A program made the translations under genes and the position numbers. DNA of 64,000 bases from Candidatus Eiseniibacteriota bacterium. Its GTDB lineage: Bacteria > Eisenbacteria > RBG-16-71-46 > JABDJR01. This document shows positions 2,877-24,040 of this stretch, piece after piece; position 1 is the stretch's first letter, and every line of letters begins with the position of its first letter. The stretch is taken from contig CAVXKA010000001.1 of the NCBI GenBank assembly GCA_963762255.1, forward strand, positions 1,536,001 to 1,600,000, in the 5' to 3' direction. Below the pieces are notes generated by a model, which saw nothing but the letters and a program-made list of their open reading frames with translations, was not told the DNA's origin and searched no databases.

Positions 2877-2977
2877 GTCTAACCAGCCGCTGCAGCCGCC
2901 GCCCGCTCCTGGGGGTAGGATAGGGCTTTGAAAGGTGTCGGTCGTCGCGGGCGCGGCTGACCGGCAGCACGTTGGAC
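2877..2977 (+). repeat. attC 1 (resident family)
   Basis: GTCTAAC...CTGCAGCCGCCGCCCGC...GCGGGCGCGGCTGACCGG...GTTGGAC. Confidence 0.92.
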
Positions 2978-2994
2978 AGACTAGGGGAGCGACG

Positions 2995-3603
2995 ATGGAG
3001 GCTGCACTAGCAAGCTGGCTCGGCTTGGTCTTGGCTGAGGCGACCAAGCAGGTCACCTCGCAGGCGACCTCGGGCATCGTGTCGCGGATTCGCAAGCTCG
3101 TCGCAAGCCGTCTTGGCTCGGAACCGAACGCGACTCAAGGGTCGCCGCAGCGGCATCACCGATCTCGTTAGCAGGACGAGGCAATCCCTGCCGCGCTCGA
3201 GGAACTCGTCGGCCAATCCCCGGTGCTTCGAAGGTTGAGTCGCGCGCTCGATCTGCTCGAGGGCGCCTGTGTTCTGTGGGTCGACGACCATCCAGAATGG
3301 AACTCGTGGGAGATGGCGTGTCTTGAGTCTGCGGGCGTGCGCGTGCGCACGGTTGAGACGACGCGATCCGCTCTCGCAATGGTAGCGGATGGCTACGACA
3401 CCATCGTGTCTGATATTCGCCGTGGCGATGAGCCGGACGCGGGGCTCAATAGGGCGCGTCACGCCGTCGCTCACGGTCGAAGGAGCCGAAAGGACCCGCA
3501 GGTGAACCGGAAGACGGTAGGGCGGTGGGAAGTGCTTGTTCAAGGCATCGTGCATGAGGTGGAGTGCATCCTGGAGGCGGAGTGCGGTACGCGCCGGGTG
3601 TAA
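2995..3603 (+). pseudogene. Cassette 2: chimeric remnant (frameshifted receiver-domain gene joined to an unrelated C-terminus with RxxxxH)
   Basis: VLWVDDHPE...DTIVSDIRR receiver half, then LNRARHAVAHG; cassette ends GTTGGAC and ACCTAAC are not complementary. Confidence 0.6.
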
Positions 3604-3607
3604 GGTC

Positions 3608-3708
3608 ACCTAACGGGCCGCTGCAGCCGCCGCCCGCTCCTGGGAGTGGGATAGGGCTTTGAAGGGTGCCGGATGTCGCGAGCGCGGCTGACCGGCAACA
3701 CGTTAGCC
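3608..3708 (+). repeat. attC 2 (resident family)
   Basis: ACCTAAC...GTTAGCC. Confidence 0.92.
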
Positions 3709-3724
3709 GGACAGGAATGGAGCT

Positions 3725-4078
3725 ATGAAGCAGAAGAAGCTCCAGAGCGTCGCCCATAACACAATGGACCACGCCGTCAGCGGTTTGGGTTTTCTCACTC
3801 CGCATGTCGTCGAGTTCTTCAGCGTTTCCGGCCAGCGGAAGCTCTCGGTTAATCTCCTTGCCGATGATCCGGTTGCAGGCAGCGGTCCACTCTCGCAGCC
3901 GCTCACGGTGGCAGCGCAATCCTGTCGACGAGATTCCTTGAGATCCTTGCCAGCGAGGGCTTCAGCCCGGCCATTCTCATGGCGGCCCGGCTCGAATTTG
4001 CTGACCTCGATGGTGCCGATTTCACATGCGAATGCGTGCTGGAATCCGAGCAAGGCGGGCGCTATAGCGCCTCAATGA
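3725..4078 (+). CDS. Cassette 3: hypothetical protein
   Basis: GGAG RBS, ORF fills the cassette. Confidence 0.55.
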   Translation: MKQKKLQSVAHNTMDHAVSGLGFLTPHVVEFFSVSGQRKLSVNLLADDPVAGSGPLSQPLTVAAQSCRRDSLRSLPARASARPFSWRPGSNLLTSMVPISHANACWNPSKAGAIAPQ

Positions 4079-4146
4079 ACTCCAAGACCTATTGGATGCA
4101 TGCACGCCAGGATCCGTGGGAGGCAATTCGGAGACTTCGGGGCGCC

Positions 4147-4247
4147 GGCTAACAAGCCGCTGCAGCCGCCGCCCGCTCCTGGGAGTGGGATAGGGCTTTG
4201 AAGGGTGCCGGATGTCGCGAGCGCGGCTGACCGGCAACACGTTAGGC
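4147..4247 (+). repeat. attC 3 (resident family, nearly identical to attC 2)
   Basis: GGCTAAC...GTTAGGC. Confidence 0.92.
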
Positions 4248-4274
4248 GTCACGGAACGATCGGGGGATCTCGAA

Positions 4275-4823
4275 ATGATGAATGACGTCCAAATTCATTC
4301 AGTCCGAATGCAGGTGCCGCCACGTGTGCGAATCGGTGGCTTGGGGAGGGGGGAGTTGCTCGAAGCGCTGCACTCGCACGGTGTCATGCTCAATCCCATC
4401 GGAGTCGAACTGTTCCAACATCCTGGATTCACCACCAAGGCGACAAGCAAGACAGTGGAGATCGCTTGTGTTTCGGTTGCGGCGCTCGGCTTCTCAGGCG
4501 GAGGGATCTACCAAGACATTGTTCAAGCAGCGATGCGACGTCGGCTGGTCGAGTGCCCTCTTGAGCTGGGGCCGCACTTGCGGATTGCCTACCTTCATCA
4601 AGCAGAGGGCTCGATCGGCTGTGCGCCTACGCAGAACAAGGCGCCTTCTGGCTCCATCACAGTGGCGTCGCCCCCACTAGACAACGACGACACTACGCCT
4701 AAGGGGTTCTATCTTCGACGCATAGAGGGCGTCTTGTGGCTCAGGGGCTTCACGTCCTGGTCGGGGCACGTATGGAGTGCCGAGGACGTTTTCGTCTTTG
4801 CGAGGCACAGTGGTGAAGCCTAA
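4275..4823 (+). CDS. Cassette 4: hypothetical cytoplasmic protein
   Basis: ORF fills cassette, stop inside GCCTAAC. Confidence 0.7.
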   Translation: MMNDVQIHSVRMQVPPRVRIGGLGRGELLEALHSHGVMLNPIGVELFQHPGFTTKATSKTVEIACVSVAALGFSGGGIYQDIVQAAMRRRLVECPLELGPHLRIAYLHQAEGSIGCAPTQNKAPSGSITVASPPLDNDDTTPKGFYLRRIEGVLWLRGFTSWSGHVWSAEDVFVFARHSGEA

Positions 4824-4886
4824 CCTCTCCATCGAGCGGATACGCCCCGGCAGGCCGGGCCGTGCCGCTCATGTCGAACATTAGGT
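4818..4886 (+). repeat. attC 4 (short, non-resident; core mutated to ATTAGGT)
   Basis: GCCTAAC...ATCGAGCGG...CCGCTCATGT...ATTAGGT. Confidence 0.8.
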
Positions 4887-4894
4887 TGAAGACT

Positions 4895-5377
4895 ATGGTA
4901 GGAAAGACGTTTCTCGTGTTGCTGGCCTTCACCGTCTTGGGGTGTGGGGACTCGACTTCTCCTTGCCACTCTGATCTCGCATTCCCACCCAAGCACCCAG
5001 AGCGGGTCACGGTCTCCCAGGGGGTTTGGGGCCTTGTTGCTTTTTGGGAAGGTGATTTCATGCCGCACTGCCTGTCAGGCACGATCACTCCTGTCGGCCG
5101 GGAGATGCGGATCCATGCGCTCACCCGGCCAGATCAAGTTGAGGGGGTGGGGCCCTTCTTCTCGGAAGTACGGACGCCGGAAGTGGCTAGGGTCTGGTCA
5201 GACGCAGATGGCTTCTTCCAGGCTGCGCTTGCGCCAGGTAAGTACAGTCTGTTCTCGGTAGAGGACACGGCCCTGTATGCGAATCGTTTGTCCTCGGGTG
5301 CTTTGTGTCCCTTCACCGTGTCGCCAGACACGGTGATCGCGGTGACTTTTGACATCACCTGGGGTGCGAACTACTGA
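4895..5377 (+). CDS. Cassette 5: lipoprotein, carboxypeptidase-regulatory-like fold
   Basis: Lipobox VLGC; SDADGFFQAALAPGKYSL. Confidence 0.75.
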   Translation: MVGKTFLVLLAFTVLGCGDSTSPCHSDLAFPPKHPERVTVSQGVWGLVAFWEGDFMPHCLSGTITPVGREMRIHALTRPDQVEGVGPFFSEVRTPEVARVWSDADGFFQAALAPGKYSLFSVEDTALYANRLSSGALCPFTVSPDTVIAVTFDITWGANY

Positions 5378-5383
5378 GATTCA

Positions 5384-5484
5384 ACCTACCGGGCCGCTAC
5401 AGCCGCCGCCTGCTCCTGGGAGTAGGATAGGGCTTTGAAAGGCTCCGGTGGTCGCGGGCGCGGCTGACCGGCAGCACGTTAGAC
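5384..5484 (+). repeat. attC 5 (resident family; AAC mutated to ACC)
   Basis: ACCTACC...GTTAGAC. Confidence 0.88.
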
Positions 5485-5507
5485 AGATTGGAGGATTCAG
5501 AGTGAAC

Positions 5508-6191
5508 ATGCAGCGGGTTCTGCTGGCCGTGCTAGGTACTCACGTGATGATCTTCTCTCTGCTGGTTGCCCCAACGGAGTGCGTCGCTGAAGACCCAGGA
5601 CGGGCCGATCCCCTGCAGAAGGGTGCGTGGGCCATTCAGTTCGGAATCACGTCTGACTTCACCTTGAATTCGTTCAGCGGCGGCATCATGTCCATGAAAC
5701 GCCACTTCTCCTCGCGTTCGGCATTACGCGGCGGGCTCAGCGGATCGCTGGAGAGTCTCGATGGGGTATCCCAGTGGTCCGATCCGGACACAACGGCCAG
5801 TGAGGATACCGATCGGGACGCAGCCGGTCTTGGGATTGAACTCCAGTACCTGTACTACTCGCGACCCATCAATGGGTTGAGTCTCTACTGGGGGACCGGA
5901 CCTTCCTATCGGACGAATCGCGACGAGTCCGGGTATTCAGCGGACGGTAGGGAGAGTAGGCGTACCAGACACCAGTGGTCGCTTGGCCTCCTCAACTCGC
6001 TGGGCGTGGAGTGGTTCCCCGCGAAGTTCGTCGGGATACACGCGGAGTACGGGCTTGCGCTGGAATATGTCTCCCAATCGACCGAGGACAATTACCTGAC
6101 AGAGTTGGGGCGAGCGCTGCGGAACTCTGAACTTGACGGGTGGCGAGTGGATGATCGCCCGGTGAGGTTTGGAGTCAGTGTCTACTTCTAG
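5508..6191 (+). CDS. Cassette 6: outer-membrane beta-barrel protein
   Basis: Signal peptide, amphipathic strands (LGVEWFP, GIHAEYG), C-terminal FGVSVYF. Confidence 0.8.
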   Translation: MQRVLLAVLGTHVMIFSLLVAPTECVAEDPGRADPLQKGAWAIQFGITSDFTLNSFSGGIMSMKRHFSSRSALRGGLSGSLESLDGVSQWSDPDTTASEDTDRDAAGLGIELQYLYYSRPINGLSLYWGTGPSYRTNRDESGYSADGRESRRTRHQWSLGLLNSLGVEWFPAKFVGIHAEYGLALEYVSQSTEDNYLTELGRALRNSELDGWRVDDRPVRFGVSVYF

Positions 6192-6197
6192 ACCACA

Positions 6198-6299
6198 GTC
6201 TAACGGGCCGCTGCAGCCGCCGCCCGCTCCTGGGGAGTAGGATACGGCTTTGGAGGGCGCTGGTGGTCGCGGGCGCGGCTGACCGGCGGCACGTTAGCT
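6198..6299 (+). repeat. attC 6 (resident family)
   Basis: GTCTAAC...GTTAGCT. Confidence 0.92.
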
Positions 6300-6316
6300 T
6301 GCTGGGTGAGGGGTTT

Positions 6317-7099
6317 ATGAGACTGCGATTTGAGCGGCTGGCGTTGTGGGCTTCTTGCGGGGTACTCGTTGCGCTCCTATCCCCAGTGCGTCTAGCGCGT
6401 GCGAATGGGCCCGAGATCGGAAGAGATGCTGGGGCCATTTTCCCGCTAGAGAGCCCTGCGGTGCAATTGGTCTATGAACACATTACTGCGACTCTGCCGC
6501 CGCAGGGATACGAGTACGATCCAGGCTCCGTCGTCTGCATCTACGGGCTCCGGAATCTCACGGACCAGGCAGTTACGTTCGAGATGTCATTCGTGACCAA
6601 CATTCCCGGACGTTTCCCCGGAGTCGTCGCGGATCAGTACAGGAGAGCGAAGTTCACAGCACAGTTGAAAGGGGCTGATCTTCCCGTAGGAATCGCTCCG
6701 GCAGACTCCGCGAAATGGGTTCCGTTCTTCGGAGTGCCGGTGGATTCCCTACCCGTGTGGACGATCGAGCTGGGGCCACGAGAGGAAGCCACCCTGAGAG
6801 TCTCGTATCTCGCGGAGTGGTCAGGCGGCGCGGATGGTGATCATTGGACGCGCTACTTTGAGTACCTGGCTACCGCAGCCTCGCTTTGGGCCGGGCCAAT
6901 CGAGCACGCAAGGGTGGAGTTTGTCCTGGGTGATCTCTTCGTAGCTGCGCTGAAGGAGATGGGGGAGGGAAGCGATCGCTTCCAGGTCCAGATCGAGCCG
7001 GCCGATGGCAAGTGGTCGTGGAACGGCGTCGTGTGGGAACGAGCGAACTGGGAGCCAGATGAAGACTTCCGACTCAGCTTTGATGGGAACGACCGGTAA
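6317..7099 (+). CDS. Cassette 7: secreted protein, DUF4424-like
   Basis: Signal peptide ending ARA-N; FEYLATAASLWAGPIE; WEPDEDFRLSF. Confidence 0.65.
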   Translation: MRLRFERLALWASCGVLVALLSPVRLARANGPEIGRDAGAIFPLESPAVQLVYEHITATLPPQGYEYDPGSVVCIYGLRNLTDQAVTFEMSFVTNIPGRFPGVVADQYRRAKFTAQLKGADLPVGIAPADSAKWVPFFGVPVDSLPVWTIELGPREEATLRVSYLAEWSGGADGDHWTRYFEYLATAASLWAGPIEHARVEFVLGDLFVAALKEMGEGSDRFQVQIEPADGKWSWNGVVWERANWEPDEDFRLSFDGNDR

Positions 7100-7113
7100 C
7101 CATGTGGTAAACA

Positions 7114-7215
7114 AGCTAACGGGCCGCTTCAGCCGCCGCCCGCTCCCGGGGAGTAGGATAGGGCCTTAAAAGGTGTCGGTCGTCGCGGGCACGGCTGACC
7201 GGCAGCACGTTAGGT
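7114..7215 (+). repeat. attC 7 (resident family)
   Basis: AGCTAAC...GTTAGGT. Confidence 0.92.
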
Positions 7216-7244
7216 TCACGGTTCCCGGGCTGGGGGAAATCGAC

Positions 7245-7727
7245 ATGGTCAGACTGATTTGTCTCGTGTCACTCCTTGCTCTACTCGGCTGTGCTGAGGA
7301 CAAAGTTACACAACCAGGGCCCGTCGGCTTCACCGCAATCGCTGATACCTCGTTCTCCGATTCGAATGTCCGCCTGGCTCTTTCGGTATCTCGCCAAGGT
7401 ACCTTGATCTATCTGGAGGTCGTCGCGTCCAACGAAAGCGCTCAGCTCCTCCGTTACGATGCGGGAGGTTGTGGATGTCCGGCACCAGGTCTCGGGCTGC
7501 ACGGCGAGGAGGGAGCAATCTGCTGGCAGCCGAGACCTCTCTGCCCATGCTGGGAGGAGATTCTCGAGTTCAGACCTGATGGGAGTGTTGGGAGGGCATC
7601 GTTGTTTCAGCTATGTCTTGAATCCCCGGGTCAGTATGTAGCTACAGCTGGCCTCTGGTACTGGTCGGGCGTGGGCCCGGAATGGGAACACCATTCGATT
7701 GAGGTTTCACTCCCCGTCACGCTATGA
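7245..7727 (+). CDS. Cassette 8: Cys-rich lipoprotein
   Basis: Lipobox LLGC; GCGC and CPC motifs. Confidence 0.72.
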   Translation: MVRLICLVSLLALLGCAEDKVTQPGPVGFTAIADTSFSDSNVRLALSVSRQGTLIYLEVVASNESAQLLRYDAGGCGCPAPGLGLHGEEGAICWQPRPLCPCWEEILEFRPDGSVGRASLFQLCLESPGQYVATAGLWYWSGVGPEWEHHSIEVSLPVTL

Positions 7728-7745
7728 GTCTCGATGAGGGGCGGA

Positions 7746-7847
7746 ACCTAACGGGCCGCTGCAGCCGCCACCCGCTCCTGGGGAGTAGGATAGGGCTTTG
7801 AAGGGCGCCGGTCGTCGCGGGCGCGGCGGACCGGCAGCACGTTAGGT
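7746..7847 (+). repeat. attC 8 (resident family)
   Basis: ACCTAAC...GTTAGGT. Confidence 0.92.
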
Positions 7848-7868
7848 TGACAGACGGGGAGGTTAGCG

Positions 7869-8138
7869 CTGGATCCTCGAATTTGGCCTGAATGGTGGGA
7901 CTGGGAACTCGAGCTCAGCCCCCACCTATGGAAGCGCATGGAAGATCGGAGATTTACTGAAGTGGATCTCCGAACCATGCTCTCGCGGGCGATGGCCATT
8001 CGGGCGGACGTAGTGCCGGGCCGGTGGGTTGCTGCGACCCGATTTCGGAAGGCCGATTGGGAGATCATCGTGGAGCCCGATGAAGGTGGTAGAATACTTG
8101 TCGTGATCACCGCCTATCCTGCGGAAGCAGACTCATGA
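7869..8138 (+). CDS. Cassette 9a: DUF4258-like putative toxin
   Basis: WPEWWDWELELSPHLWKRMEDR...ILVVITAYP; probable CTG start after GGGGAGG (first ATG at 7938). Confidence 0.7.
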   Translation: MDPRIWPEWWDWELELSPHLWKRMEDRRFTEVDLRTMLSRAMAIRADVVPGRWVAATRFRKADWEIIVEPDEGGRILVVITAYPAEADS

Positions 8139-8407
8139 GCCAGACTTACTTGGAAGTCACTTTTCGCCACGGTAAACCCCTTGCGGCCTATTACTACCTC
8201 CCACGCCGGCCGGGCCAGCGAAGCTACAGGACTCAGCGATTCGAGCCGGGTCTTGTCGTTGATTTCTCCAGAGGTGGGAAGCCACTCGGGATTGAGATCA
8301 CGGCCCCGTCTTCGACCCCGCTCTCAGCCATCAACCGGGTGCTGGCTAGCCTTGGGTTGCCGAAGTTGACCCGCGCTGAATTTGCACCCTTGCGGCTCGC
8401 TGCTTAG
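8135..8407 (+). CDS. Cassette 9b: DUF2283-like putative antitoxin
   Basis: AAYYYL...GLVVDFSRGGKPLGIEI; ATGA overlap with the upstream gene. Confidence 0.75.
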   Translation: MSQTYLEVTFRHGKPLAAYYYLPRRPGQRSYRTQRFEPGLVVDFSRGGKPLGIEITAPSSTPLSAINRVLASLGLPKLTRAEFAPLRLAA

Positions 8408-8417: not shown

Positions 8418-8519
8418 ACCTGACGGGCCGTTGCAGCCGCCGCCCGCTCCCGGGGAGTAGGATAGGGCTTTGAAAGGTGCCGGTCGTCGCGGGCGCGGCT
8501 GACCGGCAGCACGTTGGAC
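8418..8519 (+). repeat. attC 9 (resident family)
   Basis: ACCTGAC...GTTGGAC. Confidence 0.9.
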
Positions 8520-9005: not shown

Positions 9006-9108
9006 GTCTAACAGGCCGCTGCAGCCGCCGTCCGCTCCTGGGGAGTAGAATGCAGCATTGAAAGGTGGCCGGTCGTCGCGGGCGCGGCTGACCGGCAACA
9101 CGTTAGCC
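9006..9108 (+). repeat. attC 10 (resident family, TAGAAT loop)
   Basis: GTCTAAC...GTTAGCC. Confidence 0.92.
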
Positions 9109-9517: not shown

Positions 9518-9826
9518 ATGCTGATGATGGGCTGCCCAATAGGGATCGATTGGTCGGTGCGCCATGAGAGTGGCTCGGTGCGCCTCGACGGAATCGTCGT
9601 TTACCTCTCCACCAACGAAGACCGTGATGCCAGCCGTTCTGACGCAGTCGCGTTGCTGCCTCTGGCCGAGTATCGGTCTCAGGTGCTCGCCTTCGCAGAG
9701 AGCGCGCGCGACTTCTTTCTCCAGGCACCGCGGAAGTCGTTTTGCGATGCCTTCGACCGTGGAGAATACGAGCAGTTCTGGCGCGAGTTCGACTGCATCC
9801 TCGAACGCCAGCGCTTGATCGGCTAA
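9518..9826 (+). pseudogene. Cassette 11b: probable 5'-truncated gene
   Basis: Protein-like C-terminus whose stop lies in GGCTAAC; no RBS at the available start. Confidence 0.45.
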
Positions 9827-9910
9827 CAGACGTTTAGAGCTGACCGGCTCCGGAGGTATGATGAGGCACGTTGCGTCGCTAGCCGGCAGCTCAAGCGCCG
9901 GACGTTAGGC
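9821..9910 (+). repeat. attC 11 (non-resident)
   Basis: GGCTAAC...GAGCTGACCGGCT...AGCCGGCAGCTC...GTTAGGC. Confidence 0.85.
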
Positions 9911-10393: not shown

Positions 10394-10555
10394 GGTACGA
10401 TCGCAGCACCAAGAAGGGTCAGCGCCCATACTGGCTGCTTGCGACTCGTCGCTGACTGTCGATGACGGCGCGAGAGCCCATCCAAGCCGACACGAGCAAA
10501 GCCTGATCTCTAAGCTAAGGGTAGGATCTTACGGGGAGGTACCAGGGAGGCCCAC

Positions 10556-11635: not shown

Positions 11636-11736
11636 GCCCAACGGGACGCTGCAGCCGCCGCCCGCTCCTGGGGTAGGATAGGGCTTTGAAGGTGAGTCGG
11701 CAGTCGCGGGCGCGGCTGACCGGCAACCCGTTAGAA
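11636..11736 (+). repeat. attC 13 (resident family)
   Basis: GCCCAAC...GTTAGAA. Confidence 0.88.
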
Positions 11737-13024: not shown

Positions 13025-13124
13025 TTCTAACTAGCCGTTGCAGCGGCGGGTCGGGCCTGTCACGGGCCGTGCGGGGCACAACCCGCGCCAAGCCCGCTCG
13101 CCGCTGACCGGCAGCACGTTAGCT
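13025..13124 (+). repeat. attC 14 (non-resident interior)
   Basis: TTCTAAC...TTGCAGCGGCGG...CCGCTGACCGG...GTTAGCT. Confidence 0.87.
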
Positions 13125-13143: not shown

Positions 13144-13584
13144 ATGGGCAGAGTAGATGACGCACTGCGTCAGTTCGGGGAGGGTCGGGCCTGCTCGCAA
13201 GCGGTGCTCGGGGCCTTTGCGCCGTCGCTGGGGCTTGATCCCGGCCAGGCCGTCTGTCTCTCTGCCGGGTTCGCCGCCGGCATGCGAATTGGCGAGGTGT
13301 GCGGTGCAGCCACCGGCGCGATTATCGCCCTCGGCCTCGCCCGCTGCGACGAGTCGTGTGCAACGCGCGAGGGTCGGGCCGCGGTCGCATCGGCGGTCGA
13401 CGAGTTCAGCGAACGCTTCCGGCAGCGTGTCGGCGCGATCGACTGCCCCGACATCATCGGTTGCGACATCCGCACGCCTGAGGGTCGGGCATCCGCCCAG
13501 TCGGCAGGGCTCTTCGCCTCCCGGTGTACGCCCGCTGTCCGGGCTGCGGCGGAGATCCTGGACGACATGCTCACGGGCAGCTAG
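13144..13584 (+). CDS. Cassette 15: C_GCAxxG_C_C family redox protein
   Basis: ACSQAV, VCGAATGA, DCPDI, RC pattern. Confidence 0.9.
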   Translation: MGRVDDALRQFGEGRACSQAVLGAFAPSLGLDPGQAVCLSAGFAAGMRIGEVCGAATGAIIALGLARCDESCATREGRAAVASAVDEFSERFRQRVGAIDCPDIIGCDIRTPEGRASAQSAGLFASRCTPAVRAAAEILDDMLTGS

Positions 13585-13677
13585 CGGGCCGCTGCAGCAG
13601 CCCGCTCCCGGGGAGTAGGATAGGGCTTTGAAAGGTGCCGGTCGTCACGGGCGCGGCTGACCGGCAGCACGTTAGGG
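13579..13677 (+). repeat. attC 15 (resident family)
   Basis: AGCTAGC...GTTAGGG. Confidence 0.88.
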
Positions 13678-13694
13678 CTACAAGGAGTCTGCTT

Positions 13695-14453
13695 GTGCAA
13701 GCGCACTTCTCACGACACCTGAAGATCGGGGTGCTGTGTACCGGGATCCTGTGCACATCATGTTTGGATCTTGGACGCTCCACTCGTCCAACACCCACAC
13801 CCCTTCCCGCCCCCTCTTCCGCTGCGCAGGCCTTCATCGATTCCGCCGGTTTGCCGCTCTACCACGCTTCTTACCAGCTATTCATCCAGGGCAGCGTCGA
13901 AGTGTTCGGCGCCTCGTACGGGCCGGGCATGGACTGTCCCTCAGGGTGCATCAGCAGTTCGGTCCTCGGGTTGCGCGTGGCCGCGAAAACAGGCTGGCTC
14001 CTGGTACGGGACTACAACGCAGGCTTCGCGCCGGACAGTGCACAGTACTTCGATGTGACTGGGGCAGACAGTGTCCTCGGCGAGGAACCGCTGTGGATCG
14101 GCTTGAAGGCAGTTGATAAGGCCGACATCTGGTTTTGGCAATCCTATTTGCCCCTGCTTGCCCGGGACTCCGATGTGGCCAGGGATGCGCTGCTTCGCAT
14201 TCCTCAATGGCTCTATCCCCGCGTGCCATATCCGGCCCTTGGCGTCCCGGCGGCAGAAGCTCTTCTGGGGAACTATGTGGTCCAAACAGATCGCGAGATT
14301 CTCACCTTGCTAGTTCAATTGCCTGGCACCAAAGGCGATCCGTATTCGGCTATTCGGGAACGTGCGCAAGCGTATCTCGATGCGCTCGCCGGCAAGGGTC
14401 TGGGTGAGAGCCCTAACGGGCCGCTGCAGCTGCCGCCCGCTCTTGGGGAGTAA
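13695..14453 (+). CDS. Cassette 16: putative lipoprotein; ORF ends inside the attC
   Basis: AAGGAG then GTG; CTSC lipobox-like; GMDCPSGC. Confidence 0.65.
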   Translation: MQAHFSRHLKIGVLCTGILCTSCLDLGRSTRPTPTPLPAPSSAAQAFIDSAGLPLYHASYQLFIQGSVEVFGASYGPGMDCPSGCISSSVLGLRVAAKTGWLLVRDYNAGFAPDSAQYFDVTGADSVLGEEPLWIGLKAVDKADIWFWQSYLPLLARDSDVARDALLRIPQWLYPRVPYPALGVPAAEALLGNYVVQTDREILTLLVQLPGTKGDPYSAIRERAQAYLDALAGKGLGESPNGPLQLPPALGE

Positions 14454-14512
14454 GATGCGGCCTTGAAGGGTGCCGGATGTCGCGGGCGCGGCTGACCGGC
14501 AGCACGTTAGGC
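14411..14512 (+). repeat. attC 16 (resident family, TAAGAT loop)
   Basis: CCCTAAC...GTTAGGC. Confidence 0.92.
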
Positions 14513-15127: not shown

Positions 15128-15214
15128 ACCTAACAAGTGCATGAACCTGACGCGCGCGGCCGGCGCGATAGACTGCAGGCGCAGCGCGCGCAGGTTATGC
15201 GCTGGACGTTAGGC
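15128..15214 (+). repeat. attC 17 (non-resident)
   Basis: ACCTAACAAGTGCATGAACCTGACGCGCGC...GCGCGCAGGTTATGC...GTTAGGC. Confidence 0.88.
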
Positions 15215-15230: not shown

Positions 15231-15839
15231 ATGAAGTGGATCGGAGCTCTCTCTTGTCTCGTAGGATTGCTTGCCATCTCCTGTGGTGGAGAGACACCGC
15301 GCGTGGTGGAAGTCGCCGTCCTCCACACCACGCTCGGCACAATAGAGGTAGTGTTCTTCCCCGATGTAGCGCCCCTGGCCGTCGAGAACTTCAAGACCCT
15401 CGCCGACCGTGGCTACTATGATGGCACGACGTTCCACCGGACCATCGACCAGTTCATGATACAAGGGGGTGACCCAACGGCTACTGGGCGCGGGGGGGAG
15501 AGCATGTGGGGCGATCCCTTCGCGGATGAGTTCTCTGACTCCCTTCGGTTTGACCAACCAGGGCGCTTGGCGATGGCAAATAGAGGTCCGACCACGAACG
15601 GGAGTCAGTTCTTCATCACGGTGGTTCCGACCCCACACCTGAACGACAAGCACACGATCTTCGGCCAAGTGGTGAACGGGATGCCTGTTGTGCAGGCAAT
15701 CGCGCGGGCCGAGAAAGACGATCAGGGCCGGCCAGTCAGTCCGGTCACGATCACCCAGGTCCGGGTGGAGCGTGTGGGTTGGATAGGAGTTCCCCCTAAC
15801 GGGCCGCTGCCGCCGCCGCCCGCTCTTGGGGAGTATTGA
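15231..15839 (+). CDS. Cassette 18: cyclophilin-type peptidyl-prolyl isomerase, lipoprotein
   Basis: AISC lipobox; FHRTIDQFMIQGGDP, LAMANRGP, NGSQFFIT, HTIFGQV. Confidence 0.95.
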   Translation: MKWIGALSCLVGLLAISCGGETPRVVEVAVLHTTLGTIEVVFFPDVAPLAVENFKTLADRGYYDGTTFHRTIDQFMIQGGDPTATGRGGESMWGDPFADEFSDSLRFDQPGRLAMANRGPTTNGSQFFITVVPTPHLNDKHTIFGQVVNGMPVVQAIARAEKDDQGRPVSPVTITQVRVERVGWIGVPPNGPLPPPPALGEY

Positions 15840-15885
15840 AGGGTGCCGGATGTCGCGGGCGCGGCTGACCGGCAGCACGTTAGAC
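15794..15885 (+). repeat. attC 18 (resident family, loop deletion)
   Basis: CCCTAAC...GTTAGAC; about 10 nt missing from the loop. Confidence 0.9.
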
Positions 15886-16544: not shown

Positions 16545-16645
16545 GTCTAACGGGCCGCTACAGCCGCCGCCCGCTCCTAGGGATAGGATAGGGCTTTGAA
16601 GGGTGCCGTATGTCGCGGGCGCGGCTGACCGGCAGCACGTTGGGC
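16545..16645 (+). repeat. attC 19 (resident family)
   Basis: GTCTAAC...GTTGGGC. Confidence 0.92.
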
Positions 16646-18026: not shown

Positions 18027-18129
18027 GCCCAACCTGCCGTTTCAGCCGCCGCCCGCTCCTGAGGAGTAGAATGCGGCTTTGAACGGCGGCCGGTGGTCGC
18101 GGGCGCGCCTGACCGGCAGCACGTCAGGC
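18027..18129 (+). repeat. attC 21 (resident family, TAGAAT loop, GTC core)
   Basis: GCCCAAC...GTCAGGC. Confidence 0.87.
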
Positions 18130-18593: not shown

Positions 18594-18599
18594 GATGCC

Positions 18600-18753: not shown

Positions 18754-18794
18754 GGACAATCTTGGCAGGAGCGTAAATGAGATTCAGGGGGGCG

Positions 18795-19202
18795 ATGCAG
18801 AGACTCTTGGCTCAGGCACCACGCACAATTGCTGCCGCGCTCGTATGCGTGCTGCTGGCCGGCTGTGGTGAGGATGGCGTCGTCTGTACTCATGAGTATG
18901 TTCCCGGCATCACGATTGAGGTTCGTGATGCCGCAACGGGCGCCCCTGCTGCCTGTGGAGCTACGGCTTGGTTCATATCCGGGTCGTGGTCGGAGATGAG
19001 TGAGCGCTGGTGGGGATGCGATATGCCGGATTCGCTGTACTTGCCAAGCCTGAAGGGTGCATACGAGCGCAGTGGTACTTACACGGTGTTGGTGCTCAAG
19101 GACGGGTATGCGCCATGGTCGCGAGACGAGATCGAGGTTCGCGAGGACGCCTGTCATGTCCGGACAGTTGAGCTCAAGGCCATGCTGGTCCGGAATCCTT
19201 GA
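18795..19202 (+). CDS. Cassette 23: lipoprotein, carboxypeptidase-regulatory-like fold
   Basis: Lipobox LAGC; VRDAATG; GTYTVLVLKDGYAPW. Confidence 0.8.
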   Translation: MQRLLAQAPRTIAAALVCVLLAGCGEDGVVCTHEYVPGITIEVRDAATGAPAACGATAWFISGSWSEMSERWWGCDMPDSLYLPSLKGAYERSGTYTVLVLKDGYAPWSRDEIEVREDACHVRTVELKAMLVRNP

Positions 19203-19218
19203 GGCGCCGCGGGGCACC

Positions 19219-19320
19219 ATATAACGGGCCGCTGCAGCCGCCGCCCGCTCCTGGGGAGTAGGATGGGGCTTTGAAAGGCGTCGGGTGTCGCGGGCGCGGC
19301 TGAACGGCAGCACGTTAGAC
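19219..19320 (+). repeat. attC 23 (resident family)
   Basis: ATATAAC...GTTAGAC. Confidence 0.92.
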
Positions 19321-19337
19321 CGCATGTTGGAGGCAAG

Positions 19338-19913
19338 ATGAACAGAGTTGAAGGCCAGATTCGACTGCTCTGGATCGTGGTTATTCTGCAGGGCCTGGTG
19401 ATTGCTGGATTGTTTGTGATGGGAAGTGCTGGCCCACCCAGCACACTGACTTGCCGTGAGTTGATCGTGGTCGACGAGAATCAGGAGCCTAGAATCCGGC
19501 TGAAGGGCTACCCGGACAGCCAACCGCGGCAGATCCAGAGAGAGATCGCCGAGCTCTCCGCGGGCCCGGGCTACTCTCAGCTAACGCTCGTTGGGGAGAG
19601 CGCGCACTCGCGTTTGGATGCGGGCAAGTACGTGGCGTCTGTCAGTCTTCAGGCGACTCCCGACGTGAGCTCCGGGCAGGTCACTTTCTGGCCGGAGACC
19701 TCTGCATCCCTGGAAGTCGATGTTCGTCGCGAGCGTCGCGCGTGCTTCTTGGAACTACGCGATGACGACGCGCCCCGGCTGATTCTCGGCTCTTCACAGA
19801 ACAACCAGCTTTCCCTTGGGGCCAAGGGGCAGGAGCCGGAATGGGCGCCAACGTCATCGATAGTCCTGCTAGACGAGAACGGGACTGAGGTGTTCCGTGC
19901 ACCGGGCCGCTGA
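19338..19913 (+). CDS. Cassette 24: membrane-anchored exported beta-rich protein
   Basis: N-terminal TM; IVVDENQEPRIRL...IVLLDENGTEVFRAP. Confidence 0.7.
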   Translation: MNRVEGQIRLLWIVVILQGLVIAGLFVMGSAGPPSTLTCRELIVVDENQEPRIRLKGYPDSQPRQIQREIAELSAGPGYSQLTLVGESAHSRLDAGKYVASVSLQATPDVSSGQVTFWPETSASLEVDVRRERRACFLELRDDDAPRLILGSSQNNQLSLGAKGQEPEWAPTSSIVLLDENGTEVFRAPGR

Positions 19914-19925
19914 CGCAAGGGTTCG

Positions 19926-20027
19926 ATCTAACGGGCTGCTGCAGCCGCCGCCCGCTCCTGGGGAGTAGGATAGGGCTTTGAAGGGCGCCGGTCGTCGCGG
20001 GCGCGGCGGACCGGCAGCACGTTCGGC
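19926..20027 (+). repeat. attC 24 (resident family)
   Basis: ATCTAAC...GTTCGGC. Confidence 0.9.
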
Positions 20028-20071
20028 TACGATAGTAAATCATAACAACACAAAGAAAGGAGGTGATACCT

Positions 20072-20203
20072 ATGCCAAACAAAGATAAGAAAGGCCCAAA
20101 GGGGCAGGGACCGAAAGATGGGCACGGTGGAGGAAAAGGGAAAGGGAAAGGAACAAATACGCCCGCTGGTCCGAAGAAGGGCGGGAAGAAGGGCGGATGC
20201 TAA
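20072..20203 (+). CDS. Cassette 25: 43-aa Gly/Lys-rich peptide (DUF5320-like N-terminus)
   Basis: Not in ORF track. AAAGGAGGTGA RBS; MPNKDKKGPKGQGPKDGHGGGKGKGKGTNTPAGPKKGGKKGGC. Confidence 0.75.
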   Translation: MPNKDKKGPKGQGPKDGHGGGKGKGKGTNTPAGPKKGGKKGGC

Positions 20204-20205
20204 TC

Positions 20206-20305
20206 ACCGGACCAGTCGTCGCAGGCGACGTTGCCCGCCGGGACGATTCTTCGCAGTCCTAAACGGAGTTCAGGCGGGCAGCGCGCCTGAACTCACCCGT
20301 CAGGC
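20206..20305 (+). repeat. attC 25 (non-resident, degenerate)
   Basis: ACCGGAC...CAGGCGACGTTGCCCGCC / GGCGGGCAGCGCGCCTG...GTCAGGC. Confidence 0.7.
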
Positions 20306-20327
20306 GCCTGACCGCGCTGGAGGCGTG

Positions 20328-20804
20328 ATGACGAAGATCGAGGAAAGCGTTATCGTCGACGCCCCGGTGGACGCGGTCTTCGGCTATGCGTCCGACTGGC
20401 GGAGGTGGTCTGACTGGTTTGATGGTCTGTCCGGCGTTCGGCCGACATCCGAGATGACCCGTGGTAGCGGTGCGCGCTACAGCTACAGCGTCAGAGTCAT
20501 GGGTCTCCCAGCAATCGTTGAGACGGAGATCTATGATTTCGTCGAGGGCCGGGGCTGGACCGGGGTCGGGACACGTGGTCTGCCGCATCGGACGCACTGG
20601 CTGTTCGAAGCGCAGGGCCAATCGACGAGATTCACGTACACGCTGGAGTACCGCCTGCCTGTGCCTGTGTTGGGCGCCGCGCTTGACGCTCTAGTGTTGA
20701 AGCGCGAGTGGCGTGGCATACTCCGGAGGTCTCTCTCGAACGTCCGAGGGCACTTTCTCCGATCCGCGCCGCCGGAGGTGGTGGGGGCGAGCCACGGCAC
20801 CTAG
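20328..20804 (+). CDS. Cassette 26: SRPBCC family protein
   Basis: IEESVIVDAPVDAVFGYASDW; GGAGG RBS. Confidence 0.88.
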   Translation: MTKIEESVIVDAPVDAVFGYASDWRRWSDWFDGLSGVRPTSEMTRGSGARYSYSVRVMGLPAIVETEIYDFVEGRGWTGVGTRGLPHRTHWLFEAQGQSTRFTYTLEYRLPVPVLGAALDALVLKREWRGILRRSLSNVRGHFLRSAPPEVVGASHGT

Positions 20805-20868
20805 CTAGCGTTTGCGGCCGACGGCGCCCGCCTCCGGCGGTCACGTCGGCGTAGCTTGAGCGTTCGAC
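20799..20868 (+). repeat. attC 26 (degenerate, internally deleted)
   Basis: ACCTAGC...GTTCGAC; the latter complements GTCGAAC at 21784. Confidence 0.55.
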
Positions 20869-20893
20869 CCATCAGCGAGACAAGGGGTTCCCT

Positions 20894-21637
20894 GTGTCCG
20901 GACAACAGACGGTTCTGCTCGTCGGAGGCACCGGACGCACTGGTCGACGCGTCCTCGAACAGCTTCTGCGGCGCGGAGTCAGCGTGCGCGCGATCGTGCG
21001 GTCGACCCGCAGACTCCCGAAGGACATTACGGATGATCCGCGACTGACGATTGTCGAGGCCGACCTCCTGTCGTTAGGCGGCGAAGACCTCGTCGCGCGA
21101 ATTCGTGGCTGCGATGTAGTCGTTTCGTGTCTCGGCCATGTCATCAGCGTCAGGGGAGTGCTTGGTCCACCGCGTGATCTAGTCACGCGAGCCACTGAGC
21201 GACTCTGTCACGCGATTCAAGAGTCGCAGCCAGACACACCCGTCAAGTACATCCTCATGAGCAGCGTTTCAGTCAATAACCCCGGTGCGTCCGATCCGCG
21301 GCGAGGCACGATGGAGAAGGTATTTCTGTGGGTTCTCCGCGGGTTAGTCCCGCCGGCAAGAGACAATCAGCGAGCCGCGGATTTCCTCTCTCGCGAGATA
21401 GGGTTGGACAATCCGCTCGTGCATTGGGTTGTGGTTCGCCCGGACACCCTCCTGGAGGGTGATGTTTCGGCCTACTCGCTACACGAGAACCTCGTGACCA
21501 ACCTCTTCAAGCCGGTCAGTACCAACATGGCGAACGTTGCGCACTTCATGTGCGAGCTCGCCACTGATCCGGAAATGTGGGACAGGTGGGCGGGGCGACT
21601 GCCCGTAGTCGTCAACGCATCCAGTCCGGACGGGTGA
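20894..21637 (+). CDS. Cassette 27: NAD(P)H-binding flavin-reductase-like protein
   Basis: VGGTGRTG; WVVVRP. Confidence 0.9.
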   Translation: MSGQQTVLLVGGTGRTGRRVLEQLLRRGVSVRAIVRSTRRLPKDITDDPRLTIVEADLLSLGGEDLVARIRGCDVVVSCLGHVISVRGVLGPPRDLVTRATERLCHAIQESQPDTPVKYILMSSVSVNNPGASDPRRGTMEKVFLWVLRGLVPPARDNQRAADFLSREIGLDNPLVHWVVVRPDTLLEGDVSAYSLHENLVTNLFKPVSTNMANVAHFMCELATDPEMWDRWAGRLPVVVNASSPDG

Positions 21638-21783
21638 CACCCGAGGCGTAAGCACTCCCGGCATGAGCTACCGAGTGGCAGGCGATGCTGCGCCCCACGG
21701 GCCGCGAACCGAAGTCGGGGCAAGACTCTTCGTAGTTGACTTAGGGCTAGGCCGACCCGGCGCAACGCACCAGGTACGAAGCC

Positions 21784-21886
21784 GTCGAACAAGCCGCCGC
21801 AGCAGCCCCCCGCTTCTGGCGAGTAGAATGCGACCTTGATAGGCGGCCGGTCGTCGCGGATGCGGCGGACCGGCAGTACGTCAGGC
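21784..21886 (+). repeat. attC 27 (resident family, diverged)
   Basis: GTCGAAC...GAGTAGAATG...GTCAGGC. Confidence 0.82.
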
Positions 21887-21906
21887 GCCTTGCCAGTGCC
21901 GTATCC

Positions 21907-22347
21907 TTGAACTCTGTGATTCACTACAACCCCGAAGGCCCAGTCTTAGTCTATGACGGCACCTGCAGCTTTTGCGCTGGCAGCGTGCGGCTCATTCTCA
22001 AGCACGACCGGAAGAAATTGCTGCGGTTCGCCACCCGCGATAGTAATTTCGGCCGTGGCGTTGTTCAGCGTCACCCCGAGATCGCCGATGTGGATTCGCT
22101 CCTGTGGGTAGTACCCGCCGGTCAGGACCTGGGCTCAGAATTGGTGCTCACTCGTTCCGCCGCAGCTCTGCAGGTCGCGGCCTATCTGGGGGGAATCTGG
22201 CGAGCGGCCAGGGTGGCGAGGCTGATGCCTCGTTCGCTTCGCGATGCCGTCTATGAGTTTGTGGCCAAACACCGACTCGCGCTGACTCCGGGCGCCCGGC
22301 AGTGCCTGGTCCCCACCCCAGATGAGCGATTCCGCTTTCTAGCCTGA
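21907..22347 (+). CDS. Cassette 28: DCC1-like thiol-disulfide oxidoreductase (DUF393)
   Basis: YDGTCSFC; LRDAVYEFVAKHR; start uncertain. Confidence 0.9.
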   Translation: MNSVIHYNPEGPVLVYDGTCSFCAGSVRLILKHDRKKLLRFATRDSNFGRGVVQRHPEIADVDSLLWVVPAGQDLGSELVLTRSAAALQVAAYLGGIWRAARVARLMPRSLRDAVYEFVAKHRLALTPGARQCLVPTPDERFRFLA

Positions 22348-22356
22348 AAGAGGGCC

Positions 22357-22422
22357 GCGCAACAAGCCACTGCAGCGGCCGCCCGCTCCTGCGAGTAGGT
22401 TGCGGCTTTGAAGGGCGGCCGG
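22357..22422 (+). repeat. attC 28 (resident family, right arm deleted)
   Basis: GCGCAACAAGCCACTGCAGCGGCCGCCCGCTCC...TTTGAAGGGCGGCCGG, then breaks off. Confidence 0.75.
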
Positions 22423-22520
22423 AAGCACTCACTCACGGACTCCGGCTCAGGGCGGACGACGCCCCACCTGTCCGGGTCGTGTCGGGTATGATCTGAAGAG
22501 CTAATTGGAGGATCGCACCC

Positions 22521-23411
22521 ATGCCCCGCAAGACCGCACACGATTTCGATCAGGAATTGCTCGTCCTGTTCGACGCCTACGTCCATGGGGCCATCGACCG
22601 CCGCACGTTTCTCGACAAGGCTGCCAGGTTCGCCGTCGGTGGAGTCACGGCGATGATGCTGCTTGATCAGCTGAGTCCGAACTTTGCGGCCGCGCAGGTG
22701 GTTAGCGCCGAGGACAAACGGATCGAGGCGAAGCATCTGGAGTACGACTCGCCGAAGGGCTACGCCAGAGCCCGCGGGTACTTCGTCAATCCGGCGGCGG
22801 CGAAAGGGAAGCTTCCGGGCGTCCTCGTGATCCACGAGAACCGCGGCCTCAACCCGCATATCGAAGACATCGCACGGCGCCTCGCGCTCGATGGCTTTGT
22901 CGCCTTCGCCCCCGACGCCCTCTTCTCTCTGGGTGGCTACCCCGGCGACGAAGACAAGGCGCGCGAGCTGTTCGTGAAGCTCGATCAAGCCCGGACCCGC
23001 GAAGACTTCACCGCCGCGGCAGCGTTTCTGAAAGCGCGCCCGGAGTGCACGGGCAGGGTGGGAGCGGTGGGCTTCTGCTACGGGGGAGGCATGGTGAACT
23101 ACCTGGCCACGCGTCTGGGCGGCGATCTCTCCGCCGCCGTCTGCTTCTACGGTTCCCCCCCGGACATGGAGGACGTGCCGAAGATCAAAGCACCGCTGAT
23201 TGTGCACTCCGCGGAGAAGGACGAGCGCATCAACGCCAGCTGGCCGGAGTTCGAGCGGGCTCTCAAGGCAGCGAAGGTCAAGTACGAGCGCTTCCTGTAT
23301 CCCGGTACGCTGCACGGCTTCAACAACGACACAACGCCGCGGTATGACGCGGACGCGGCCAAGCTCGCGTGGGGGAGGACGCTCGCGTTCCTCGAGAAGC
23401 ATCTGCGGTAG
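22521..23411 (+). CDS. Dienelactone hydrolase family protein (YghX-like, Tat-like leader)
   Basis: DRRTFL; HENRGLNPHIEDIARR; GFCYGG; HGFNND. Confidence 0.93.
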   Translation: MPRKTAHDFDQELLVLFDAYVHGAIDRRTFLDKAARFAVGGVTAMMLLDQLSPNFAAAQVVSAEDKRIEAKHLEYDSPKGYARARGYFVNPAAAKGKLPGVLVIHENRGLNPHIEDIARRLALDGFVAFAPDALFSLGGYPGDEDKARELFVKLDQARTREDFTAAAAFLKARPECTGRVGAVGFCYGGGMVNYLATRLGGDLSAAVCFYGSPPDMEDVPKIKAPLIVHSAEKDERINASWPEFERALKAAKVKYERFLYPGTLHGFNNDTTPRYDADAAKLAWGRTLAFLEKHLR

Positions 23412-23480
23412 CTGATGCGCCGGGCCCATCGGAACGTCAAGCTCGGCCAGTTTTGGAAACGCGCTTGACGGGGAGGCCGC

Positions 23481-23900
23481 ATGGCCTTGAGCGCATTCGA
23501 TGACAAGTCTCGTCCGCCCAAGCCTGGTGAGCTCGAAGCGGTTCTCGGCGATTCCGCCGGGCTCTGGGATGAGCTGGTTGCGCACGTGGAGGGGGCCTAC
23601 CCGCCGGTCACGCAACTCTGGAATTTCTCCGGTGCCAAGTACGGCTGGTCGCTGCGGCTCAAGCGCCGCGAGCGGATCGTGCTTTACATGACGCCGCAGC
23701 CTGGAGGCTTCCTGCTAGGCGTCGTCTTGGGCGAGAAGGCGGCGAAGGCCGCGCATGATTCGGGTTTGCCAAAATCGGTCCTCATCCTGATCGACGGCGC
23801 ACCCCGCTACGCCGAGGGTCGGGGCATCCGCCTCGTTGTCTCGAGCGCAGGCGACCTCGCTGCGGCGCGGACGCTCGCTGCGCTCAAGATGGCCACGTGA
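23481..23900 (+). CDS. DUF3788-like protein
   Basis: WNFSGAKYGWSLR; YAEGRG. Confidence 0.75.
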   Translation: MALSAFDDKSRPPKPGELEAVLGDSAGLWDELVAHVEGAYPPVTQLWNFSGAKYGWSLRLKRRERIVLYMTPQPGGFLLGVVLGEKAAKAAHDSGLPKSVLILIDGAPRYAEGRGIRLVVSSAGDLAAARTLAALKMAT

Positions 23901-23938
23901 CGGCACTACGTCAGGCGAATCGGAGGGTTGGCAGGGTC

Positions 23939-24040
23939 GCCCGACCGGGCGTTGCCGCCGGCGTCCGCTCCCGGGGAGTAGAATCCGGCTTTGCGGGCGG
24001 CCGGTCATTGCGGTCGCGGCGGACCGGCCGCACGAGAGGA
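23939..24040 (+). repeat. attC 29 (resident family, strongly degenerate, core lost)
   Basis: GCCCGAC...CCGCTCCCGGGGAGTAGAAT...GCGGCGGACCGGCCGCACG. Confidence 0.7.

Follow-up and report, generated by a model that had tools for sequence, protein, structure and literature searches.

The integron and its cassette array

The window, by which we mean the whole stretch of 64,000 nucleotides analysed from this Candidatus Eiseniibacteriota genome (G000; GC content 66.7%), contains a sedentary chromosomal integron with a decayed integrase. The integrase gene adjoining the array is present solely as a pseudogene, a remnant (1722..2116, + strand) that is co-oriented with the cassettes and consists of two fragments in different frames, with the N-terminus and middle of the protein absent and a poly-G run near 2107. 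These fragments match positions 88-130 (E 5e-11) and 248-306 (E 6e-34) of TIGR02249, both scoring below the 265-bit cut-off. A search at E<=1e-30 recovered no full IntI in this genome; relatives encode intact IntI in the same orientation as here, and 64 of 206 genomes exceed the cut-off. A candidate attI crossover core, GTTAGAC (2333..2339, + strand), which is assigned from its position only, precedes the first cassette ORF (2375-2680). Beyond it, the ORF map reveals mostly single co-oriented ORFs with one site after each, and in 8 of the 9 cassettes for which distances were computed the ORF starts 24-47 nt past the GTT.

An nhmmer search with a repeat-derived model identified 20 copies of a resident attC family in the window. 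They are about 100 nt long and approximately 89% identical, loop included, and 18 of them are bounded by CTAAC on one side and by GTTAG or GTTGG on the other, the last two being truncated or decayed. The sites are imperfect inverted repeats, and in the consensus fold of 18 copies 23 pairs enclose a centre of about 36 unpaired columns. In single-strand folds, for which the copy at 7748..7845 served as reference, the region of the hexamer described below stays unpaired; their energies lie between -19.5 and -27 kcal/mol (z = -0.1 to -1.8), the predicted folds contain bulges, and none of the 23 stem pairs displays covariation.

A -10-like hexamer in the attC loop

The original prediction held that the loop of these sites carries a hexamer of the form TAnnnT, about 50 nt before the GTT core, from which each attC could transcribe the next cassette. 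Sequence alignment combined with an exact-motif scan recovered precisely the variants that had been claimed, with the start of the hexamer measured at about 55 nt before the GTT. All copies lie on the + strand. The most frequent form, TAGGAT, is seen in 11 of them: 2879..2975 (hexamer 2916-2921), 5386..5482 (5423-5428), 6200..6297 (6238-6243), 7116..7213 (7154-7159), the reference copy 7748..7845 (7786-7791), 8420..8517 (8458-8463), 11638..11734 (11674-11679), 13579..13681 (13616-13621), 16547..16643 (16584-16589), 19221..19318 (19259-19264) and 19928..20025 (19966-19971). TAGAAT occurs in four, namely 9008..9106 (9046-9051), 18028..18129 (18067-18072), the diverged copy 21785..21887 (21824-21829) and the last, decayed copy 23944..24038 (23979-23984). 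Single copies have TAAGAT (14413..14510; hexamer 14451-14456) and TAGGTT (22361..22417, truncated with its 3' half replaced; 22396-22401). The second and third copies, 3610..3706 (3647-3652) and 4149..4245 (4186-4191), which are 97% identical to each other, have lost A2 and read TGGGAT, and a 10-nt deletion in 15796..15883 has removed hexamer positions 3-6, providing a natural negative control. Thus, TAGGAT or TAGAAT is present in 15 of the 20 copies, and T1, A2 and T6 are all retained in 17.

Comparable hexamers occur elsewhere on the + strand of the array. As had been predicted, two attC sites unrelated to the family carry them: TATGAT (9857-9862) in 9824..9908, with TTTAGA upstream at an 18-nt spacer, and TAGACT (15169-15174) in 15130..15212. 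The site at 13027..13122 joins the 3' arm of the family to a different 5' half and a loop devoid of TAnnnT. A TAGGAT outside any attC (10522..10527), 28 nt upstream of a GTG start at 10556, is likely a cassette-borne promoter. A second TAGGAT (14516-14521) is situated just past R' of the attC at 14413..14510, before an ORF starting at 14567, and a TATGAT (22487-22492) is found 28 nt upstream of an ORF starting at 22521.

The earlier caveat that there is no convincing -35 element also holds: a consensus scan returned none of the family sites. Its only promoter-like hit within 2300-22000, where shuffled sequences give a mean of 3.9, was at 9833-9862, i.e. the TATGAT site of the unrelated attC 9824..9908, which is the sole sigma-70-like site that it found in the array. 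In the family sites positions -24 to -18 fall within the GC-rich 5' arm, and GAG precedes the hexamer, so that an extended -10 (TGn) is absent in the window family. The copy at 8420 has a TTG 21 nt upstream, which was considered as a -35 element at non-standard spacing and rejected as too distant.

Conservation across the family

We then compared 40 aligned copies of the family: the 20 from the window, 10 from elsewhere in the genome, 8 metagenomic and 2 from relatives, leaving out 2 that could not be aligned. The metagenomic copies are the full-length ones among 13 loci detected by a metagenome scan, and BLAST of one attC against 60 relatives yielded real copies in G004 and G007 only. A degenerate 3'-arm pattern hit at least 117 loci on genome contigs, nearly all of them chance matches, with L075 as the sole partial family match beyond the genomes already known; a sequencing-run search listed 5 soil or sediment DNA runs (shares <=0.08) and no RNA run.

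TAnnnT is retained in 34 of the 40 copies. Nevertheless, the special conservation attributed to the hexamer was not borne out, as per-position comparison across the family shows it to be no better conserved than neighbouring loop bases. Non-consensus bases number 0, 2, 2, 5, 2 and 1 by hexamer position among the window copies, and Fitch steps over all 40 number 2, 3, 1, 7, 3 and 0 (sum 16), placing the hexamer 7th-10th among 35 six-column windows of the loop, while the G-run immediately upstream requires 10. The hexamer constitutes the 3' edge of a conserved block of about 25 nt. Its persistence in decayed copies, which had been noted earlier, is real, but the whole 5' block persists there and not the hexamer alone. 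Likewise, the premise that attC loops are normally unconstrained is inapplicable to a homogeneous resident family. The VCR attC family of Vibrio cholerae is itself conserved over its whole length, terminal structure included.

These patterns are what would be expected if, as elsewhere among sedentary chromosomal integrons, the resident sites were derived from one recent template or are being kept alike, with the hexamer being a chance TAnnnT in a loop richer in A/T than the genome, lacking a selected role and giving rise to at most spurious initiation. We regard this passive explanation as a serious possibility, though one that falls short of being probable. It is favored by a loop that evolves no faster than the arms (means of 3.93 versus 4.09 and 3.04 steps), by the unexceptional rank of the hexamer next to a better-conserved G-run, and by the lack of compensatory changes in the 23 stem pairs, which indicates that the family is either young or homogenised. 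It is also favored by the tolerance of knock-out variants in sites that are otherwise intact: TGGGAT in two copies, the 10-nt deletion in a third, and CAGGAT in L166.

Match to the -10 repertoire and gene geometry of the host

To characterize native promoters, positions -130 to -25 before 829 gene calls with an upstream gap of >=120 nt were collected, excluding integron regions; both the calls and the attC finder come from crude scripts that we wrote ourselves. In this set TAnnnT occurs 499 times on the forward strand and 315 times on the reverse, while control patterns have ratios of <=1.24. The leading hexamers, as forward:reverse counts, are TAGAAT (29:7), TAGACT (24:10), TATACT (24:5), TATGAT (17:2) and TAGGAT (16:4). 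Hence, both principal hexamers of the attC family are among the most strand-biased TAnnnT words of the host and match its -10 repertoire. The native -35 is weak, with T at -23 in 43%, and for the seven best hexamers, a set defined post hoc with the data already seen, 35-54% of the forward occurrences have neither a -35 nor an extended -10. TG before the hexamer displays no enrichment in native G000 promoters (23% forward, 23% reverse). High-GC bacteria such as mycobacteria use -10-only TANNNT promoters, in which the -35 carries little information. This genome resembles them in its dominant -10 and weak -35; the mycobacterial promoters come from mapped starts, whereas the repertoire here is inferred from hexamer strand bias before crude gene calls.

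Between 2300 and 24100 the seven best hexamers match 26 times on the + strand, including two in loops of the unrelated attC sites, and 5 times on the - strand; none of the latter lies within a loop, giving no indication of a bottom-strand promoter in the window family. In composition-matched shuffles of the loop any TAnnnT arises in 27%, which is in line with the passive explanation, but one of the seven best host hexamers arises in only 2.3%, which argues against it. Orientation and distance also speak against mere chance, being right for a promoter: in the 9 of 18 cassettes on which the geometry is based, the hexamer lies 78-103 nt before the start codon in eight and 176 nt in the ninth, compared with a native median of 77 (interquartile range 54-119). 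The whole genome contains 240 TAGGAT and 176 TAGAAT, mostly not before genes; therefore, the hexamer by itself is weakly predictive.

At 4 of about 11 junctions without a good attC hexamer there is a separate good hexamer within about 130-200 nt (14516, 16017, 22487 and 10522), while only 1 of about 17 junctions with a good attC hexamer has a further one downstream (15262). This complementarity (hypergeometric p ~0.06, calculated by hand and post hoc) is not counted as evidence.

A comparable motif in the attC family of G003

Analysis of resident attC families across the class uncovered a parallel motif in G003, which belongs to the same GTDB family as the present genome and to another genus, and has an intact IntI. 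Its attC family is a different one, 128 nt long with 32 unique copies and with ORFs on the same strand, and its loop contains an island TGnTAnnnT on the cassette-coding strand, with TG and TAnnnT each present in 30 of 32 copies. The Fitch steps are 1 and 1 for TG and 4 for the free position, followed by 2, 1, 4, 2, 2 and 0 across the hexamer. Here the hexamer does exceed its surroundings, ranking 2nd-4th of 29 windows in a loop that is truly variable (mean 3.21 steps versus 1.64 outside it). Descent alone does not explain this island, which is a further point against the passive reading. The island is AT-rich and sits exactly in the middle of the site, whereas the hexamer of the window family is off-centre.

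The motif is not general: of the 5 resident families examined in the class, 3 have no top-strand version of it, and this again favors passive homogeneity. The families of G034 and G006 have no such motif, and in that of G069 10 of 17 copies carry TATGCT, but on the bottom strand. In a further 44 attC-like hairpins from the class, TAnnnT occurs 17 times on the top strand (expected 12.8) and 4 times on the bottom (expected 11.7), which favors the promoter reading.

A candidate promoter within the recombination site

We propose that the attC hexamer could be a -10-only promoter for the next cassette, a reading that we hold to be plausible, if not quite probable. Its original argument from conservation has fallen away; the match to host -10 words, the frequent absence of a -35 in native promoters, the geometry and the G003 motif speak for it. 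In duplex DNA the hexamer would serve the housekeeping sigma factor, with transcription starting about 7 nt past it and within the attC, predicted for the reference copy at ~7797-7800. Such a transcript would span the 3' arm alone, and so could not form the attC hairpin, before reaching the next cassette with its ribosome-binding site and its ORF, 78-103 nt away. Every junction might thereby confer some expression on the downstream cassette, independent of Pc and of cassette shuffling. The motif with its orientation, host match, geometry and G003 counterpart is observed, while initiation by RNA polymerase at the hexamer and selection for it are inferred. Weighing against it are a G-run conserved at least as well in the window family, a block of about 25 nt that it leaves unexplained, family sites with neither -35 nor TGn, the knock-out variants in otherwise intact sites, and the families without a top-strand motif.

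Less likely is a structural role, which we consider improbable, wherein the conserved 5' half of the loop, hexamer included, shapes folding of the recombinogenic bottom strand, via a short TCCT/AGGA hairpin or a patch that melts more readily within a very GC-rich site and thereby aids cruciform extrusion. The best-conserved block is indeed the end of the 5' arm plus this half of the loop, kept even in decayed copies, and two double changes (copies at 14413 and 21785) preserve TCCT/AGGA pairing. Cruciform extrusion is described as needing melting of the terminal structure (PMC8946536), and the G003 island is exactly central. However, only 130 of 156 cells pair in the TCCT/AGGA helix and 15 are C-A mismatches, and the alternative CTCC/GGAG helix lacks covariation; both local hairpins were set aside since their covariation is unconvincing. 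Moreover, the single-strand folds leave the region unpaired, at the z scores given above, the window-family hexamer is not central, and a melting patch would keep neither the TG nor the free n positions of G003.

It is very improbable that the block aids translation, with an SD-like G-run and a mini-ORF (ATG, two codons, in-frame TGA) retaining ribosomes on read-through mRNA and unfolding the attC hairpin for the next cassette: GGGGAG does resemble the ribosome-binding sites preceding cassette ORFs, ATG where present (10 of 40 copies, counted by eye) is always in frame with a nearly invariant TGA, and short ORFs in attC that relieve hairpin barriers have been reviewed (PMC8876359), but a non-start codon (ATA, ATC or another) takes its place in 30 of 40 copies, which led us to reject the mini-ORF, the column that follows the hexamer is one of the most variable at 6 steps, and the hexamer itself goes unexplained. 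Two further roles were discarded by eye: stops in three frames, as ORFs end before R'', and a G-quadruplex formed by the G-rich top strand, as the loops between G-tracts are long.

Comparison with known systems

In Vibrio sp. DAT722 a sigma-70 promoter bridging an attC is reported to yield ~40-fold more transcript, and most cassettes of that array to be transcribed from intra-array promoters (Michael and Labbate 2010, PMC2945992). The candidate promoter resembles it in that it would overlap an attC and drive the next cassette of a large chromosomal array; the DAT722 promoter, as that study presents it, concerns one junction, is partly cassette-specific in sequence and has experimental support (PMC2945992), whereas the element proposed here would belong to the attC family itself, at 15-17 of 20 junctions, and is known from sequence. 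Vibrionaceae superintegrons contain promoter-bearing gene-less cassettes, and transcription starts of cassette F2 have been mapped inside an attC (Blanco et al. 2024, PMC11014356). There too, promoters within sedentary arrays feed downstream cassettes, but by that account mostly from dedicated gene-less cassettes in a low-GC gammaproteobacterium, rather than from a motif shared among attC sites (PMC11014356). Group IIC-attC introns can likewise express the downstream cassette from an outward-facing promoter at attC, one described as brought by the inserted intron (PMC3001079); there is no intron here, as the sites are ~100 nt and an Rfam scan of the window gave 0 matches. The array is also comparable to that of V. 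cholerae in having one species-specific attC family beside one integrase gene (PMC11014356, PMC8946536), and differs from it in that the integrase gene is decayed and co-oriented with the cassettes and the loop bears a host-type -10 hexamer.

Implications for cassette expression

Sedentary integrons hold hundreds of promoterless cassettes at a distance from Pc, and whether and by what means these are expressed is an open question in the field; the answers known so far are promoter cassettes and cassette-borne promoters scattered through the arrays. The motif is testable, with the copies at 3610, 4149 and 15796 as natural negative controls; if the promoter reading is wrong, conservation of the loop in a resident attC family is no evidence of function. 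A broader scenario, rather unlikely on present evidence, is that resident attC families of chromosomal integrons in this lineage have acquired, at their unpaired centre, a -10 promoter of their own, TAGGAT/TAGAAT here and TGnTATATT in G003, making each junction a transcription start and allowing arrays to be expressed without Pc, shuffling or integrase. As the hexamer falls in the portion of the site that folding leaves single-stranded, recombination and use of the promoter might be mutually exclusive, and expression would then be coupled to the folding state of the site. If true, expression would become a property of the recombination site itself, which would explain how an array stays useful after its integrase has been lost.

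Chromosomal integron with a decayed integrase

The first part of the window (1-24100) harbors a chromosomal integron whose integrase survives as a deleted remnant on the + (cassette) strand (1722-2116), comprising two frame-shifted fragments and, near 2107, about 11 consecutive G. In the integron-integrase model these fragments cover positions 88-130 and 248-306, each scoring under the cut-off, and a search of the whole genome at E<=1e-30 recovered no full integrase. The integrase is co-oriented with the cassettes, a 'reverse integron' layout that recurs in the relatives G003, G004 and G007, where the genes are full-length, two of the three having one internal stop. Directly upstream of the remnant, on the - strand, is a gene for an ECF-type sigma factor (825-1406), accompanied by what is probably its anti-sigma gene (31-843).

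Downstream of the remnant nhmmer detected 20 copies of one repeat of about 100 nt, with the ends CTAAC and GTTAG, whose bottom strand is predicted to fold into a 23-pair hairpin enclosing about 36 unpaired columns. Since short + strand ORFs are separated by these copies, the repeats are attC sites. At least 8 attC-like sites of unrelated sequence are scattered among them. The site at 13027-13122 combines the 3' arm of the resident family with a 5' half and a loop of the 'GTCACG...CTGGC' type, which also occurs in the arrays of G003, G004 and G069. A further 12 family copies or fragments occur elsewhere in the source genome (G000), as attC clusters with no integrase nearby, at C1:486058-490590 (- strand), C1:835001-841500, C1:1414742-1414791 and C2:1157250-1157636.

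The loop hexamer and the promoter vocabulary of the host

The original prediction was that a conserved TAnnnT hexamer in the attC loop could act as a promoter for the next cassette. Every listed variant was recovered in its place among the 20 copies (TAGGAT 11, TAGAAT 4, TGGGAT 2, TAAGAT 1, TAGGTT 1, deleted 1), with the hexamer starting 55 nt ahead of GTT, as were TATGAT at 9857 and TAGACT at 15169, each in an unrelated attC site. The genome has a GC content of 66.7%, and TAnnnT is rare in it (0.00147 per nt per strand). Genes were called crudely, as GC3-based ORFs with starts picked by the Shine-Dalgarno motif, giving 837 with an upstream gap of at least 120 nt (829 once all integron regions were removed). 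Between -130 and -25 of these genes TAnnnT was found 499 times on the gene strand versus 315 times on the opposite one, the strand bias of control patterns in upstream regions being at most 1.24-fold. The leading forward hexamers (forward:reverse) were TAGAAT (29:7), TAGACT (24:10), TATACT (24:5), TATCCT (20:8), TATGAT (17:2) and TAGGAT (16:4). As they are present in this set, both main variants of the family count among the preferred -10 words of the host, as do TATGAT and TAGACT from the unrelated sites. Of the shuffled loops, 2.3% contained one of the seven best such words and 27% a TAnnnT of any kind.

Around 184 such upstream sites the -35 signal is weak: 43% of them show T at -23, and 48% show G at -2. 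Neither element, -35 or extended -10, is present in 35-54% of 142 forward instances, the figure varying with the definition; hence, a missing -35 is a weaker objection here than it would be in E. coli. In eight of the nine cassettes for which it was computed, the distance from hexamer to start codon is 78-103 nt, with a native median of 77. These results lean towards a credible -10; against it, TAGGAT and TAGAAT occur 240 and 176 times across the genome, and the word by itself does not suffice to make a promoter.

Host-type -10 hexamers also lie outside the attC loops at 10522, 14516, 22487 and 8090 (the last directly preceded by TGg), 28-45 nt ahead of cassette starts, and look like candidate cassette-borne promoters. 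Three of the four come after attC sites that have no good hexamer. The leader at 20029-20075, lying after the attC at 19928-20025 and ahead of an ORF rich in lysine and glycine that begins at about 20072, is unusually AT-rich for the genome.

Conservation of the hexamer within the resident family

Our alignment of 40 family copies drew on the window (20), other parts of the genome (10), metagenome contigs (8, retrieved with a 3'-arm pattern that leaves out the hexamer) and the relatives G004 and G007 (a single copy apiece); another two, with unalignable loops, were dropped. Conservation was measured as parsimony steps per column on a tree. The six hexamer columns require 2, 3, 1, 7, 3 and 0 steps, and their sum of 16 ranks 7th-10th among 35 six-column loop windows, whereas windows across the preceding G-run score 10. 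Taken alone, T1, A2 and T6 sum to 5 steps (tied 3rd-5th among 35). With 3.93 steps per column, the loop shows no faster evolution than the two arms, which take 4.09 and 3.04. The hexamer is therefore not specially conserved relative to its loop, and for the resident family this line of argument fails the criterion set with the original prediction. Rather, these counts make the hexamer the 3' end of a block of about 25 nt that extends to it from where the 5' arm ends; no other stretch of the site is so well conserved. Likewise, in decayed copies the hexamer does survive as had been noted, but together with this entire block, and several of the extra-window copies have decayed while retaining the 5' block with its hexamer.

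These patterns bear on a different reading, in which the resident attC family is passively homogeneous and the hexamer is there by chance. This reading alone accounts for conservation of the whole site and not just of the hexamer, and we regard it as a serious possibility, if a somewhat less probable one than a promoter. Structural or translational roles are minor alternatives. No convincing structural reason was found for the block. A possible TCCT/AGGA helix was rejected: against two compensatory changes stand 15 C-A mismatches.

attC families of related genomes

Integron integrases are common in the class, scoring above the cut-off in 64 of 206 genomes (a tally that includes the unpublished G054, which enters no other result), and the DNA downstream of 18 integrase genes was screened for attC-like hairpins with a custom script. 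G003, which belongs to another genus of the same GTDB family, has an intact integrase and an array of about 40 kb, with ORFs on the integrase strand and a different, 128-nt attC family. Across 32 unique copies its loop is more variable than its arms (3.21 versus 1.64 steps), yet the loop center holds a conserved island, TG-n-TA-n-A-T-T, with TG in 30 copies and TAnnnT in 30. The island requires 1, 1 and 4, then 2, 1, 4, 2, 2 and 0 steps, and its windows rank 2nd-4th among 29. It lies about 60 nt ahead of GTT on the strand reading into the next cassette, and its information profile matches that of an extended -10 promoter. Several cassettes of this array (L222, G003:C8:296000-311000) are exact duplicates with identical attC, e.g. 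the copies at 2670/4132, 3347/5544 and 4869/6289, which points to recent tandem duplication.

Such a motif is not universal among resident families: it was not found in those of G034 or G006, and in that of G069 the top strand has no TAnnnT and 10 of 17 copies carry TATGCT on the bottom strand. Short attC sites, about 54 nt long, are too small to accommodate it. One minimal attC type of about 54 nt recurs nearly unchanged across genomes of the class, at 11 or more loci (L176, L211-L228; a cluster of 13), which suggests that cassettes are shared across genera. Over 44 other distinct hairpins, from a crude finder whose output includes false positives, the TAnnnT counts (top strand 17 versus 12.8 expected by composition; bottom strand 4 versus 11.7) are suggestive.

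Functional implications

Published work describes intra-array promoters in integrons, a promoter that spans one attC (PMC2945992), transcription starts within a single attC (PMC11014356), promoter cassettes (PMC6557892) and promoters carried by introns (PMC3001079). None of the full-text passages covered by the search describes a -10 element as a conserved part of a resident attC family. Given that the word fits the host, that its direction and distance are right and that a second family displays the expected conservation pattern, we tentatively propose, as the best single explanation, that the loop hexamer of the resident family may serve as a -10 promoter element for the next cassette.
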